The notes: a model not told the origin generated them from the sequence alone. A stretch of DNA of 5,588 bases from Escherichia coli (GCF_003334785.1 NZ_QOWV01000043.1); one strand, 5' to 3'. Positions 1 to 5,286 are shown, counted from the stretch's first letter. Made by a program: numbers and translations.

Positions 1-26
1 AGACGGATTCATACATGTATTCCCGG

Positions 27-68
27 TGAAAAAAGACAAAACCCCGCGCACCGGAAAGGTGGCGGGGG
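27..68 (-). terminator. Intrinsic (rho-independent) terminator downstream of the 339-aa gene
   Basis: Plus 42-68 ccccgcgcacc-ggaaa-ggtggcggggg folds into a GC-rich stem of about 10 bp (two single-base bulges) with a 5-nt loop. Read on the minus strand, the hairpin is followed directly by ttttgtctttttt (plus 29-41), about 55 bp past the TAA stop at 122-124. There is no T-run on the plus-strand side, so it is unidirectional. Confidence 0.7.
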
Positions 69-121
69 ATTCACGGAGATAATATCTGTCTGAGATTATT
101 TAGAATGTAACAGGTAATGAA

Positions 122-1141
122 TTACTTCCTTCGCTTGTGTTCAAGATATTTCTCTGTAATCAGCATTTCAAAAAACTCTCCTGTTCTCAGACCGTAAACA
201 GTTCTGAGCTCATCAAGCATTTCTTTCACATTGCTTCTTATATGTATATTAATGGCCTTTTTACCATCACTCCGATATTTTTCCTTTTGTTTTTTCTGAT
301 GCCAGGCATGATTTATTCGTGTTCTGAACAGTTCAATGGTATCAGGCACTTCTTTCCATAAAGCAAAGGCGACAAGAGAGGCAAGATAATATTCTTTCGT
401 TGAAGATGGTATGAACCACCGGGTCACTGGGTTATGTACCGGATGTGTTTCATCCTGTTTTTGTTTCAGTCTTGTCCAGAACCACTGACACATTTCATCA
501 TCGTCAGGAAGGAGCCACTTAAACTTTTGACAAGCGCTTTTCTTTTTAAGCCACGCCTGCCTGAGTTCCTCGAGGTATATGCTTTTTGCATTTTTATTAA
601 TTAAAGAATGGCAGGAGTCAAAATATGAAATGATTACTTTTATTCGTTCGTTATGGGATGATGGATTATCCGGAAGGTTACTTTTTTTGTAAGTGTTTAA
701 CGTTTCATCGGTAACTGTTCGTATTTTTCTGACTTCAATTCCGTTTTTTATTCCTGATGAATTATGGTTTATTTTCGGGAAATTTGTATGATCTTCCTTC
801 GACAGATAAATAGTAGTCCAGGTAAAGAAAGTCGCAAGTTCGTCAGTTTTCAACCAGAGAAAACTCTCTTCAGGCAGTATTGCCTGCCCTGCAATAATTT
901 CAAGTTCATTAATTTCTTTGCTGAGAGTTTCTTCTGCAGTCGAACCAAAAACACCAAAAGAATTGTTTGAAGCTTTATAATACTTTTCTTTTAAAAACGA
1001 ATTAACATTTCTGATACAGTTTTGTGGGTTGTCAGGCGCAAACTGAGGGAATTCATTGGGGTATTTGTGATTCAGATATTCGGCATAAAACCGACATTTA
1101 CGGGGATCTTTGCATTTGATAAGCATCTGTTCGTTATTCAT
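122..1141 (-). CDS. Hypothetical protein, 339 aa; Cys-containing N-terminus and a C-terminal ribbon-helix-helix-like segment (by-eye inference)
   Basis: A 340-codon open frame in AT-rich DNA (about 32% G+C in a hand-counted sample at 601-660), where stop codons are frequent, so it is unlikely to be chance. ATG at 1139-1141 is preceded by GGAG (reverse complement of plus 1149-1152) with a 7-nt spacer. The terminator at 27-68 follows the stop. C-terminal residues KAINIHIRSNVKEMLDELRTVYGLRTGEFFEMLITEKYL show a strand-helix-turn-helix pattern reminiscent of Arc/MetJ/CopG/NikR N-domain. No catalytic motif recognised. Confidence 0.8.
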   Translation of the reverse strand: MNNEQMLIKCKDPRKCRFYAEYLNHKYPNEFPQFAPDNPQNCIRNVNSFLKEKYYKASNNSFGVFGSTAEETLSKEINELEIIAGQAILPEESFLWLKTDELATFFTWTTIYLSKEDHTNFPKINHNSSGIKNGIEVRKIRTVTDETLNTYKKSNLPDNPSSHNERIKVIISYFDSCHSLINKNAKSIYLEELRQAWLKKKSACQKFKWLLPDDDEMCQWFWTRLKQKQDETHPVHNPVTRWFIPSSTKEYYLASLVAFALWKEVPDTIELFRTRINHAWHQKKQKEKYRSDGKKAINIHIRSNVKEMLDELRTVYGLRTGEFFEMLITEKYLEHKRRK

Positions 1142-1470
1142 TATCTCACTCCATGTCGCCTCTCTTATAACAAAATCGTCTCAATTTTATTTTGTCACTA
1201 AGTGATTATCAAATGTTTTTGTTGTGATTTGCTTATGTTGTTAAATGTCTATGTCATGTTATCAGTGTTTTTATATAAAGATATATTGATATTTTTATGA
1301 TGGTGAAAAATCATATTTTCTTTTATATTCATTTGGTTATGCTTGTTTGTTCTGCATTTTGGGGATGACAGAAAAGAATGGGCTGTGTTGATCACATGCG
1401 CCGTATGCGCTCTCCAGGTTACAGCGCACCTCAATATTCAGTGTTTTCCTGTTGACTGGCATTGTTAATC

Positions 1471-2267: not shown

Positions 2268-2438
2268 AAAGAAAAAATCGTTATTGTTCAGTTGACGTAT
2301 ATTTCCGGGTGATGGCTCCAGTCAGCAGAACATGTGTTTTTCGATGAATGACCCAATAACTTTTTCGTGAATTTCCACGGAGCGTGAAAAGCAAATCGTT
2401 TTTCGGTCCAGTCGTTTGATGCGGGAACGGAGTGTCAG

Positions 2439-2723
2439 ATGGTGGTGCTCAATACGCCGGGTAAATATCAATACGATTTGAGGAACCATTTGCTGGTTAA
2501 TCTCTTTCCGATAGCATTGGATGCAGAAATAACTACATCCAATGTAAATAAGCATCAATTGCACAGAAGCAATATACCTGCGGCCCTCTCCGGAAATTCC
2601 GGTATCACTGACTACGTACCGTTTTCAGCAGAACGAAATGCGGCGATGGTCATTTGGCGGACAGCCATAGATAGCCGTCCGGCTGTGTGTAACGATGAGG
2701 AAGGAACCCCGGGAACGTTATGA
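2439..2723 (+). CDS. Hypothetical 94-aa ORF, convergent with the 190-aa gene (uncertain)
   Basis: ATG at 2439 preceded by GGAG (2429-2432) with a 6-nt spacer. It lies in a G+C-normal segment, and its translation looks more protein-like than the overlapping minus-strand ORF 2322..2564, which is Cys/His/Arg/Ile-heavy. Its stop at 2721-2723 is 1 nt from the stop of the 190-aa gene (2725-2727). No recognisable family. Confidence 0.3.
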   Translation: MVVLNTPGKYQYDLRNHLLVNLFPIALDAEITTSNVNKHQLHRSNIPAALSGNSGITDYVPFSAERNAAMVIWRTAIDSRPAVCNDEEGTPGTL

Positions 2724-2724
2724 A

Positions 2725-3297
2725 TCAACAGGCGTATAACAGGTACTCGTCAATCATCAGTTCCAGCTCGCGCTTTTCCCGTTTGCGCGCCACAGCCCAG
2801 TTTTCAAGCTCTGCATGTGATTTATGCTTTAACTCTTCAGTCCAGGGCTGCATGGAGTGGGCACACATCAGATCATACCAGCACAGCCATATTAGCGTGT
2901 GGTAGAGATCACGATCGTCGAAACGCCGGAGCAGGCTGTTCAGCCTGTTTGCCAGCCGGCTTTCGCCCAGACGATGTAGCTCACTGAGTAAAACGCCGCC
3001 CAGATTAAAATGCGTAAGCAGCATGATTTCATGGGTCTGAATGCTGGTCATTAACCCTTCCTGAATGGCAGGAATGAACGGTGGCGTTCCCGGGTTGACG
3101 ACCTGATAGAGTCCCTGTGGTGCCACTGAGATGATGGTGCCTTTTTCCGGTAGAAAAAAGTGGGCCAGGGTCAGGCGGTGATAACCATGAAGATGCGGAG
3201 AGCCCATTCCATGAGCGACAATAAACCGGGTTACACTTGCCATCCATTTCTGATGCTGAATTAGCAGCAGATCACACCGGTTTTCAAGTTTTTGCAT
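2725..3297 (-). CDS. Hypothetical protein, 190 aa, likely co-transcribed downstream of alpA
   Basis: ATG at 3295-3297 preceded by AGGAG (reverse complement of plus 3306-3310) with an 8-nt spacer. It starts 85 bp after the alpA stop on the same strand, with no terminator visible between them. G+C resembles alpA. In enterobacterial islands the gene after alpA is often annotated as an inovirus Gp2 / YfjJ-YagK-type protein, but I cannot confirm that from sequence memory. Confidence 0.75.
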   Translation of the reverse strand: MQKLENRCDLLLIQHQKWMASVTRFIVAHGMGSPHLHGYHRLTLAHFFLPEKGTIISVAPQGLYQVVNPGTPPFIPAIQEGLMTSIQTHEIMLLTHFNLGGVLLSELHRLGESRLANRLNSLLRRFDDRDLYHTLIWLCWYDLMCAHSMQPWTEELKHKSHAELENWAVARKREKRELELMIDEYLLYAC

Positions 3298-3382
3298 AAT
3301 ATTCTCTCCTTTAGCACGCAGCAGAATGCCTCCGGAGGCCGGATAGTGTATTCGCTGCGGTTGAACGGATAACGGTCAGGAA

Positions 3383-3589
3383 TTACGGACGGGATTGTGC
3401 AATACGCGCCTGCAACCAGGCTTCCACTTCACTTTTCAGCCATCGGGAGCTGCGGCCGAGTTTGATGGGGGCCGGAAAGGCACCATCTTTGATGAGCTTA
3501 TAAAACCACTTATCGGTTAAGCCGGTCAGTTGAGTGATAAACGCCATGTCGACCATCTGGTCATCCATCAGCGAAACTGGGGTCTTCAT
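3383..3589 (-). CDS. alpA: AlpA-family phage/island transcriptional regulator (excision activator-like), 68 aa
   Basis: Translation MKTPVSLMDDQMVDMAFITQLTGLTDKWFYKLIKDGAFPAPIKLGRSSRWLKSEVEAWLQARIAQSRP carries the characteristic AlpA/Vis-type helix-turn-helix signature (LTGL...Y.LIK.G.FP.PIKLG..S.RW...EVEAWL). ATG at 3587-3589 is preceded by GGAGG (reverse complement of plus 3599-3603) with a 9-nt spacer. Size is typical of the family. Confidence 0.88.
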   Translation of the reverse strand: MKTPVSLMDDQMVDMAFITQLTGLTDKWFYKLIKDGAFPAPIKLGRSSRWLKSEVEAWLQARIAQSRP

Positions 3590-3971
3590 GAAAATGTTCC
3601 TCCGGATGTTGTTAATCTCAACCGGCGTTGGTGATGAAAACGACGCACCACCTTCACCGGCATAACAACCGGGGAGAAACGTAAAAAAGTTGAGGAATAT
3701 TCCTGCCAGGAGAGAAACTGTTGTGTACAGGCAATACAGGTTGTCTGTTTTGTCAGTGAAGCCGGTATAAACGGAAGATGATTTTGTGTTGCCGGAATAT
3801 GGGATGGCGTTTTGCCGTGACGGAATCAGTATTTTCAGTGATGATTATTACTGCGCAGGGGAGTATCGGAGATAAACCACGCCCTGTACCTGCCAGAGCT
3901 GTGGTTTGTATTTACTGAAAGGAAGATAAAGCAGAGGTAAACACTGTTGCGGTGAACGGAGAAGACTGAAA

Positions 3972-4763
3972 TTATTCTCTGTAATTACAAACAACAGTGA
4001 TCTGATCCGGTTTTTTTACCGTTACGGGTTTCCGGGGATCAATTTTATAGACCGGGGTAATGACCACGCCGGAATTTATGGAGAAAAGCGGGATCCAGCA
4101 ATAAACGTCCGGATATTTCTGTGTCTCCGGAATACCTTTTGCGCCAGAGGCCATCAGATCTTTAACGCTCACGAAAAATGACTGCCGCAGATCAAAAAAG
4201 TACTCGTCATATATCACGTCTTTTGCCAGCAGGATGACTGCATTACCAACAGCCACTTTTACAGGTGTTTCGCCCGATGGATTATCGTGATTGTATATTG
4301 TTCTTTCGATATAAATAAAACAGGCATATTTCGTCTTCTCCCCGGATAGCTGCATCTGGTATTCGCAAATGTCTTTGATATACCGACTTTCAACCCTTCC
4401 AATCATCTTATCCCGGCGATAGTGTCTTTTATGTTTCAGCGCGTACAGAACACCATTTGAACTGTCAAACTCCAGGACTCTTCTGGTGAAAAGTTTGTTT
4501 TCCCAGATTTCCAGACAATACTTCTCTGCACTGACGACATTGCGTTTGCGAGGAAGATCCCGTTGATACACTCCATTTAATAAGCGTGACTGCAGTTCGC
4601 CTGCAAGTTGATAATAACAGTTAATATCGTTAAGGACAGGTGCTGTGGCGCTGAGTAATGCGTCGATTACCTTAGAGCGCGAAAGTTTGTGGGTATGACA
4701 GTACTCATCCACAATTCGCAGCGTCTCATCACTAGTCATATTGAAAGTTATACGTGTTGTCAT
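3972..4763 (-). CDS. Hypothetical protein, 263 aa; N-terminal ribbon-helix-helix DNA-binding domain fused to a C-terminal domain of about 220 aa with unknown function
   Basis: A 264-codon open frame (about 43% G+C in a hand-counted sample at 4201-4260). ATG at 4761-4763 is the first possible in-frame start, since an in-frame stop lies 6 codons upstream. N-terminal residues TRITFNMTSDETLRIVDEYCHTHKLSRSKVIDALLSAT match a strand-helix-turn-helix RHH pattern (compare the NikR N-domain RVTITLDDDLLETLD...). No obvious Shine-Dalgarno: the upstream sequence is aacagaaaacttcatcATG. Confidence 0.75.
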   Translation of the reverse strand: MTTRITFNMTSDETLRIVDEYCHTHKLSRSKVIDALLSATAPVLNDINCYYQLAGELQSRLLNGVYQRDLPRKRNVVSAEKYCLEIWENKLFTRRVLEFDSSNGVLYALKHKRHYRRDKMIGRVESRYIKDICEYQMQLSGEKTKYACFIYIERTIYNHDNPSGETPVKVAVGNAVILLAKDVIYDEYFFDLRQSFFVSVKDLMASGAKGIPETQKYPDVYCWIPLFSINSGVVITPVYKIDPRKPVTVKKPDQITVVCNYRE

Positions 4764-5086: not shown

Positions 5087-5286
5087 TGTAAATGAACCCT
5101 GTAATTCCACCTTGTAACCCAATCCTGTAGACGGATCTCTCATAAAGATATGCTCATAGAAGTATCTGTACAGAGATATTCTCTGTAGTAGTACTTGTAA
5201 CTCTGTCCTTAACTCTCTCTGCTGTAATGTAATCTCGTAACACCTGAATATAAATCTGTCATGTACACACACTGACTGTAATGTAC
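5087..5286. repeat. Cluster of TGTA-core short repeats (candidate operator or iteron array)
   Basis: About eleven TGTA/CGTA-core motifs in roughly 200 bp: ctgtaat at 5099, 5222 and 5276; ttgtaac at 5112 and 5195; ctgtag at 5125 and 5183; ctgtaca at 5166; tgtaca at 5262. The 10-mer ctgtaatgta recurs at 5222-5231 and 5276-5285. The cluster lies 320-520 bp upstream of the 263-aa gene start. Confidence 0.45.

Follow-up and report, generated by a model that had tools for sequence, protein, structure and literature searches.

A predicted ribbon-helix-helix protein as a candidate autoregulator in the backbone of CP4-57-like genomic islands

Is a large AT-rich open reading frame (ORF) in a genomic island of Escherichia coli a piece of cargo, or could it encode a regulator of the island that carries it? 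The ORF, of 339 codons (ORF339), lies in a stretch of 5,588 nucleotides (GCF_003334785.1, NZ_QOWV01000043.1), hereafter called the window, which belongs to a chromosomal genomic island and is matched at 99.9% over 5.5 kb by E. coli TW10722 and others. Islands of this type are found in most E. coli genomes (fragments of the window match 4,473 of 5,426 complete genomes), and they bring the species a large share of its cargo for anti-phage defence, adhesins, and toxin-antitoxin systems. According to the passages that PMC12458937 and bioRxiv 10.1101/2024.08.29.610337 devote to them, their regulation and movement are still unexplained. Our analysis suggests that ORF339 is a backbone gene of these islands encoding an autoregulating transcription factor of the ribbon-helix-helix (RHH) type, which would bind a palindrome at its own promoter. 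We put the probability of this reading at about 0.6.

Conservation of ORF339 and extent of its family

ORF339 starts with an ATG codon, and its translation is a protein of 339 residues with an isoelectric point (pI) of 9.1. A preliminary description of the window, made from the sequence alone, had placed here a coding sequence preceded by a strong Shine-Dalgarno motif, and both were recovered on the minus strand (Table 1). The gene is carried by 256 of the 5,426 complete E. coli genomes, in which all of its 263 places are chromosomal, and it is intact (at least 80% of the ORF covered) in 245 of the 256 carriers. The ratio of nonsynonymous to synonymous substitutions (dN/dS) was 0.18 to 0.19 for E. 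coli alleles that are about 4% apart. Such a proportion of intact copies, together with a dN/dS of about 0.19, argues that ORF339 is functional and not decaying, and on this sequence evidence it is a real gene under purifying selection. The possibility that its homologs would be found only as fragments, as in a decaying gene, was not borne out, since its relatives are full length.

Searches with the single sequence of ORF339 revealed nothing significant in Pfam, NCBIfam, PHROGs, PADLOC, or the sequences of the PDB. An exhaustive scan by HMMER, covering 1.84 billion representative proteins (clusters at 50% identity), retrieved 298 clusters of relatives at E ≤ 0.001 and 117 at E ≤ 1e−10, nearly all of them 290 to 340 residues long and aligned from end to end. 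A second profile search, run on a word-indexed protein database, provided no additional relatives. The overall fold of ORF339 was found by Foldseek in more than 100 proteins of AFDB50, from Enterobacterales, Vibrionales, Alteromonadales, Oceanospirillales, Aeromonadales, and a few other groups. Almost all of these are labeled “uncharacterized protein,” and one is named “replication initiation protein.” The close subfamily, at 48 to 60% identity, comes from Edwardsiella, Rahnella, and Yersinia. The number of full-length clusters and of fold relatives refutes the initial description of ORF339 as an orphan, and the alignments indicate that it is a member of a widespread, uncharacterized gammaproteobacterial family. 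The accompanying statement that no family could be recognized stands, in that no curated family spans the large N-terminal part of the protein. The RefSeq labels of the E. coli copies differ, being “hypothetical protein,” “transcriptional regulator,” or “replication regulatory protein RepB.”

We found no homolog of ORF339 among 50,697 phage records. A family gene was present in 21 plasmid records, which correspond to the same island inside large plasmids, with the same AlpA, Gp2, and DUF932 neighbors.

Place of the family gene in the islands

The preliminary description had raised the question of whether homologs co-occur with alpA-type islands, and a survey of their contexts showed that the family gene faces AlpA across genera. 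A locus search with a 15-sequence alignment returned 9 loci. The layout is common to at least 15 loci from many genera (Edwardsiella, Rahnella, Yersinia, Hafnia, Tenebrionibacter, Siccibacter, Superficieibacter, two Enterobacteriaceae scaffolds, Vibrio, another chromosome, and a Klebsiella plasmid), and in all of them the family gene heads a conserved arm that is divergent from a module with AlpA and a Gp2-like protein. One strand carries zinc-ribbon genes, AlpA, and a YagK/YfjJ gene (inovirus Gp2-like, HUH Rep-like). The opposite strand carries the family gene, a YfjP-like GTPase and/or a WYL gene, and then DUF932, antirestriction, RadC, DUF987, and CbeA/CbtA genes. The two modules are separated by a spacer of 0.4 to 4 kb, which is a cargo site. 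In E. coli this spacer contains a block formed by ORF263, alpA, and ORF190, together with an IS1 remnant, and the canonical hha, Gp2-like, and two zinc-ribbon genes lie immediately past the right end of the window.

The position of the family gene is thus fixed across genera with respect to AlpA, the Gp2-like Rep, and the DUF932/antirestriction/RadC/CbeA-CbtA arm. This synteny and the contents of the E. coli spacer imply that the AT-rich gene is the backbone and the G+C-richer alpA block a local insertion, which reverses the initial view of ORF339 as foreign cargo on an alpA backbone. As far as gene order can tell, ORF339 is a conserved backbone gene of CP4-57-like islands that integrate at tRNA or tmRNA genes. 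One could still regard it as an orphan piece of AT-rich cargo of recent acquisition, kept silent by H-NS and with no conserved role, given that its G+C content is 36.9% versus 52.2% for alpA and 51.0% for ORF190 next to it and that a hha gene is found nearby in the island. The contrast in composition is real but smaller than first estimated (about 32% had been given for ORF339), and a large full-length family, a synteny fixed across genera, purifying selection with most copies intact, and an alpA block that is itself the variable part make this explanation scarcely credible. A silencing of ORF339 by H-NS, which is speculative, would be compatible with its autoregulation by an RHH module.

The 1.6-kb spacer of the window showed no conservation in BLAST comparisons with the equivalent spacers of 12 other loci, so a sequence-conserved origin or RNA is unlikely to lie there, and Rfam revealed nothing in the window. 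Other loci carry genes of a defensive kind at or near this place. The spacer of locus L016 (positions 6382 to 8352) encodes a 656-residue OLD-family-like ATPase, and Gabija-like pairs of OLD-TOPRIM and UvrD-helicase genes are found by the AlpA/Gp2 module in L003 (3320 to 6908) and L005 (2142 to 5743). This suggests that a cargo hotspot adjoins the family gene.

A 7.2-kb contig (JAIJJM010000108.1, locus L014) binned in a metagenome-assembled genome of “Collinsella sp.” encodes the ORF339 protein at 99% identity and shares ORF263, alpA, ORF190, a Gp2-like fragment, and a zinc ribbon as neighbors. Almost certainly, the contig comes from Enterobacteriaceae and was binned wrongly.

Predicted fold and DNA-binding module

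The AlphaFold2 model of ORF339, built from an 80-sequence alignment, had a predicted local distance difference test (pLDDT) score of 90.5 and a predicted template modeling (pTM) score of 0.85. It shows twelve helices in residues 13 to 291, followed by an extended segment (292 to 302) and two further helices (Table 1). The N-terminal 290 residues or so, for which no convincing structural or Pfam match was found, would constitute a novel all-alpha domain, whose fold is predicted with confidence. The preliminary description had pointed to cysteines at positions 10, 16, and 42, which are indeed there (others are at 177, 204, and 218), and this part stood, but they are not conserved across the family. 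Cys10 is variable even in close relatives, Cys16 and Cys42 are invariant in the close subfamily only, the 80-sequence alignment having no conserved column at either, and no metal-site signature was seen.

The last 40 residues or so had been said to resemble an RHH motif, and several weak matches converge on this assignment. The best sequence-family matches of ORF339, both to residues 291 to 334 and both under the family thresholds, are PF10723 (RepB-RCR_reg; 12.0 bits, E = 0.21, profile positions 38 to 76 of 81) and NCBIfam PRK13702 (15.5 bits for a cut-off of 87, E = 0.013, positions 38 to 81 of 85). Among the 80 relatives, PF10723 was matched by 4 at E ≤ 0.001 and by 29 at E ≤ 0.1, and RHH_1 by 9 at E ≤ 0.1; relatives at 48 to 59% identity bear precomputed PF10723 matches, and one matches Pfam MatP_C. 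When the family profile was compared with the PDB, it matched SvtR (E = 0.012), CopG (E of about 1), and MatP (E = 0.47 over 115 columns).

An RHH protein dimerizes through an antiparallel two-stranded ribbon, each chain giving a strand followed by two helices. Two copies of residues 284 to 339 were therefore joined by a Gly-Ser linker and modeled by AlphaFold with a matching alignment. In this model the two strands (294 to 302) pair, as expected from the anticipated dimerization of the C terminus, and the helices have a pLDDT near 90, so that the predicted dimer has all the elements of the fold. Its best structural match was TraY, which owes part of its rank to the artificial single-chain design of the dimer; the others included single-chain Arc, TacA, KacA, and MazE7. 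The assignment of the C-terminal residues to an RHH module thus holds at the level of predicted models and profiles.

RHH modules are usual in type II antitoxins, and TacA, KacA, and MazE7 are among the structural matches. This raises the question of whether ORF339 is a toxin-antitoxin or anti-phage component, i.e., the antitoxin or sensor of a pair that it would form with the YfjP-like GTPase encoded downstream, in an island that is rich in defence and toxin-antitoxin genes. The GTPase gene is directly next to the family gene in 8 surveyed lineages. However, about half of the loci (L009, L011, L015, L018, L020, L022, and L023) lack it at this place, it is separated from ORF339 by 109 nt with a terminator in between, PADLOC has no match at ORF339, and a protein of 339 residues with a C-terminal RHH departs from the usual antitoxin layout. 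We consider such a role improbable. As an RHH-class type II antitoxin proper, ORF339 was rejected on account of its size and of a downstream gene that varies between a GTPase, WYL, DUF3944, DUF932, and a membrane protein.

A conserved palindrome upstream of the gene

The DNA 5′ of the family gene, when aligned between E. coli, Edwardsiella, and Rahnella, has a single conserved block, AATCACTTAGTGA. The pattern AATCACT[T/G]A[G/A]TGA is likewise the only conserved stretch in seven upstream sequences (from E. coli, Edwardsiella, Rahnella, Yersinia, and two metagenomes), which represent five lineages with proteins 48 to 60% identical. BLAST found no other similarity among the loci in the upstream and spacer DNA. 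The core of this palindrome, TCACTTAGTGA in E. coli, falls between the two elements of the highest-ranking predicted promoter, which has 10 of 12 consensus matches and the top score of the region. Promoter-like matches are no more numerous than in shuffled sequence, so this promoter is a prediction only. The palindrome occurs once in the window and in one copy per locus of about 20 kb, some 62 to 77 nt 5′ of the start codon.

In distant subfamilies, the same place is occupied by palindromes of the type CTAC-N1-5-GTAG, such as ACTACAATGTAGT, AACTACTGTGTAGTT, AACTACTACGTAGTAGTT, and TAAACTACATAGTAGTTTA. Seven sites of this type occur in 241 kb of loci, and six of them are no more than 120 nt 5′ of the family gene, where 0.05 were expected, and the half-sites ACTAC/GTAGT are enriched 13-fold within this distance. 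Moreover, the sequence class of the β-strand that is predicted to read the DNA tracks the class of the palindrome: KKAINxxIR goes with TCACTTAGTGA and KKALNTYLK with ACTAC-N3-GTAGT. Arrays of comparable half-sites are present in distant loci, and the E. coli gene has a weak extra half-site in direct orientation (Table 1).

A search for extra copies of the operator with at most one mismatch in five loci gave a sole one, TCACTTAGGGA, in Rahnella (L005, positions 12378 to 12388), 17 nt before a WYL-domain gene; it is compatible with chance and would fit a second operator. The repeat clusters at positions 2153 to 2267 and 5087 to 5286 of the window, to which the preliminary description had tentatively linked the protein, received no support as targets, the best candidate being the single-copy palindrome. 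The cluster at 5087 to 5286 is a dense run of short repeats resembling CTGTA[A/C/G], set in AT-rich DNA 5′ of the hha and Gp2 genes and is unrelated to the palindrome. Tandem Repeats Finder reported nothing, including for this run.

Given such a site, ORF339 might resemble MatP, as a DNA organizer or bridger made of a helical bundle and an RHH that binds palindromes and compacts the DNA of the island. The arms of matS are the pentamers GTCAC and GTGA(C/T). The candidate site can be read as the same pentamers separated by a 3-bp spacer, in the opposite relative orientation. The alignment of the family profile to MatP includes part of the helical bundle that precedes the RHH, and the MatP_C match of one relative points the same way. 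Yet a profile-profile comparison keeps only the 39 columns of the RHH (probability of 18%), all scores are below significance, and the protein ends after the second RHH helix (residue 338/339), without the C-terminal coiled coil. One candidate site per island would also leave such a protein nothing to bridge. We regard this role as very improbable, and ORF339 was rejected as a MatP, having neither significant homology over the four-helix bundle and RHH nor the coiled coil.

A role in the replication or transfer of the island is another explanation that the palindrome bears upon. ORF339 would then be an accessory factor that, in the manner of TraY, VirC2, or plasmid copy-control proteins with an RHH, binds near an origin in the AT-rich spacer and loads or regulates the Gp2-like HUH initiator. 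A YagK/YfjJ/Gp2-like gene is indeed upstream on the opposite strand in every locus with enough flank, the nearest sequence families (PF10723 and PRK13702, i.e., CopB/RepA2) are regulators of plasmid replication, the dimer model is closest to TraY in structure, and one AFDB relative is called a replication initiation protein. In addition, section 11 of PMC12458937, which deals with such islands, proposes that they replicate by their own Rep-like genes. However, the only conserved DNA element is found 50 to 80 nt from the start codon of the family gene itself, away from the Rep gene, in a single copy that does not resemble iterons. Outside this element, the spacer shows no conservation from one genus to another. 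The family gene and the Gp2-like gene are separated by 0.4 to 4 kb of cargo, here by the whole alpA block, and such insertions indicate that the two do not form a tight unit. With the TraY match also being partly a product of the dimer design, we consider this role unlikely.

Terminator and leader of the downstream gene

The YfjP-like GTPase gene follows ORF339 on the same strand (start at window position 12), and a G+C-rich hairpin with a U-tract lies between the stop codon of the one and the other (Table 1), in agreement with the intrinsic terminator initially assigned to ORF339. Equivalent hairpins with U-tracts are found in Edwardsiella, Rahnella, and other genera and in locus L016. The intergenic RNA after ORF339 folds with −28.6 kcal/mol (z = −3.4). 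The hairpin is nested in an outer helix whose 3′ arm covers the ribosome-binding site (RBS) of the GTPase gene. RNAalifold, applied to six genera, predicted 10 pairs, of which 6 have compensatory changes. Rfam had no match for the nested helix region. In its layout, this region resembles an attenuator or leader, or else a small RNA. A terminator enclosed in a conserved helix that covers an RBS hints at regulated read-through and not at a simple stop. ORF339 had been described as monocistronic; the terminator makes this plausible, but the outer helix leaves room for transcription to continue in a regulated way. A conserved block, TCAGAYAGATATTA, is found ahead of the helix and could be a −10 element.

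Proposed function of ORF339

From these data, the product of ORF339 is probably a DNA-binding regulator, and we favor the autoregulating RHH transcription factor introduced above. In the mechanism we propose, the RHH modules of two chains would pair their β-strands to form a dimer, as in the linked model. The dimer would enter the major groove of TCACT-T-AGTGA between the −35 and −10 elements of its own promoter, as the conservation and position of this site suggest, and its binding would repress the transcription of ORF339. By way of read-through of the attenuator-like terminator, this repression would probably also set the level of the downstream arm, a step that we put forward more tentatively. 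As for the N-terminal domain, one may speculate that it mediates higher-order oligomerization or that a signal or partner acts on it to free the protein from DNA.

Several points weigh against autoregulation. The Pfam and NCBIfam scores of ORF339 itself are under the family thresholds. The motif patterns were defined after inspection of the data, and generic palindromes with 5-bp arms are found in 40% of 120-nt windows. Promoter-like matches are not enriched over shuffled sequences, and a promoter over the palindrome is predicted in E. coli only, those of Rahnella and Edwardsiella being placed 70 to 90 nt upstream. The palindrome could be bound by another island protein, e.g., AlpA or the WYL protein. 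Finally, a conserved domain of 290 residues exceeds the needs of a simple autorepressor, and the main function of the protein may lie elsewhere.

A broader role can be imagined, in which the family is the master switch of CP4-57-like defence islands with AlpA and a Gp2-like Rep, as are a prophage repressor or the Stl protein of Staphylococcus aureus pathogenicity islands (SaPIs). The RHH would keep shut the promoter of the arm with antirestriction, RadC, and toxin-antitoxin genes, and the all-alpha domain would sense a protein of a helper phage or plasmid, or an island partner such as the GTPase or Rep, thereby freeing the promoter upon mobilization. We hold this extension to be rather unlikely.

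This analysis adds to these islands a conserved protein, predicted to bind DNA, at the junction of the cargo and the accessory arm, a precise candidate operator, and a confident fold model. Together, they provide an experimental handle on island regulation. The new all-alpha domain could become a Pfam family.

Features and other genes of the window

The features of ORF339 and its surroundings are given in Table 1.

Table 1. Features discussed in the text (window coordinates)
Feature	Position	Strand	Description and basis
ORF339	122..1141 (stop codon 122-124)	minus	339 residues; ORF list and translation; RefSeq WP_001364486.1
Shine-Dalgarno motif GGAG	1149-1152	minus	7 nt 5′ of the ATG; read from the sequence
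Predicted N-terminal all-alpha domain (residues 1-291)	269..1141	minus	Two helical sub-domains; low-confidence loop at residues ~116-148
Predicted C-terminal RHH module (residues ~292-339)	125..268	minus	Strand 294-302, helix 303-316, helix 320-338
Best sigma-70-like promoter (predicted)	1184..1212	minus	TTGATA 1212-1207, 17-nt spacer, TAAAAT 1189-1184; consensus scan
Candidate operator palindrome	1194..1206	minus	ATCACTTAGTGAC; core TCACT-T-AGTGA at 1195-1205, inside the promoter spacer
Extra direct half-site AATCAC	1224..1229	minus	22 bp 5′ of the first half-site of the palindrome; by inspection, weak
Intrinsic-terminator-like hairpin with U-tract	31..67	minus	Hairpin 42-67, U-tract UUUUGUCUUUU at 31-41; terminator scan
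Outer helix around the terminator	21..79	minus	70-79 pairs with 21-30; 3′ arm covers the GTPase RBS GGGA
Region with the nested terminator	13-121	minus	Also L003 10982-11110, L005 10955-11063, L016 11000-11101, L017 10955-11107, L019 10949-11081
ORF263-alpA-ORF190 block and IS1 remnant	2322-4763		Compared with L001 20709-22927, L012, and L013
IS1 remnant (annotated)	2322-2468		
ORF190	2725-3297	minus	Directly 3′ of alpA
ORF263	3972-4763	minus	

ORF190 has no match in Pfam, NCBIfam, PHROGs, or PADLOC. It occupies the place that yfjI/yfjJ have downstream of alpA in CP4-57, and the hypothesis that it is a diverged YfjJ/Gp2 protein was rejected upon comparison. ORF263, which is absent from O104:H4, has no Pfam match, and its N terminus (residues 6 to 33) weakly matches aCcr1, an RHH-type NCBIfam (E = 0.0025). 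This single match is all that would link it to the RHH of ORF339, and the theme that the preliminary description saw in both proteins could not be upheld. In some RefSeq genomes, the label “YagM family protein” is attached to one gene of the window.

Comparison with known systems

The autorepressors Arc, Mnt, and CopG share with ORF339 a β-α-α arrangement, a dimer built on a ribbon (predicted for ORF339), and a short palindrome in or beside their own promoter. They have 45 to 90 residues, with little beyond the RHH, whereas the RHH of ORF339 would represent the last 14% of its 339 residues, the rest being a conserved all-alpha domain of about 290 residues without known relatives.

CopB/RepA2 proteins of IncFII plasmids (PF10723 and PRK13702) are small proteins of plasmid replication control, and of their profiles, which are about 85 residues long, only the second half is matched by residues 291 to 334. 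In contrast, ORF339 has 339 residues, is borne by an island, and never occurs in a plasmid replicon context. It was rejected as a member of this family, the match being below threshold, covering part of the profile, and lying outside any plasmid control region. Because the scores are far under the cut-offs, half of the profile is matched, and there is no replicon context, the RefSeq name “replication regulatory protein RepB” is misleading, and our analysis corrects it.

MatP resembles ORF339 in having helical segments followed by an RHH and a palindromic target (a candidate one for ORF339), and the weak similarity, in sequence and in fold, extends slightly past the RHH. It differs by its C-terminal coiled coil and dispersed sites, ORF339 having no coiled coil and a single candidate site per island. 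TraY and VirC2 have the RHH fold in common with ORF339, which is also found on a mobile element with a gene for an HUH-type enzyme, here separated by cargo. However, TraY has two RHH units per chain and ORF339 one, and the candidate site of ORF339 is at its own promoter. No relaxase or type IV secretion system (T4SS) genes were found within 10 to 20 kb of the family loci, a coupling protein is likewise absent from the island, and ORF339 was rejected as a TraY-like relaxosome protein.

At the level of the island, section 11 of PMC12458937 describes “uncharacterized integrated MGEs” (mobile genetic elements) with an integrase, an AlpA-like excisionase, an HUH Rep, and a “moron” arm of RadC/ArdB/CbtA-CbeA, and the passages seen in bioRxiv 10.1101/2024.08.29.610337 deal with tmRNA islands of the same class. 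As far as these passages go, the defence islands of both sources resemble that of ORF339 in their integrase, AlpA, Gp2-like Rep, defence cargo, and RadC/ArdB/CbtA-CbeA arm, and the passages on these islands do not name the ORF339 family. CP4-57 of E. coli K-12 differs in lacking the family gene, with no match of the hidden Markov model (HMM) anywhere in it. YfjH, which is of similar size and lies by alpA in CP4-57, was rejected as a homolog (BLASTP E = 0.03 over 33 residues, hhalign probability of 0.4%). Set beside these systems, ORF339 is, by prediction, a DNA-binding protein in which an RHH is joined to a novel all-alpha domain, a combination that is not surprising in kind.

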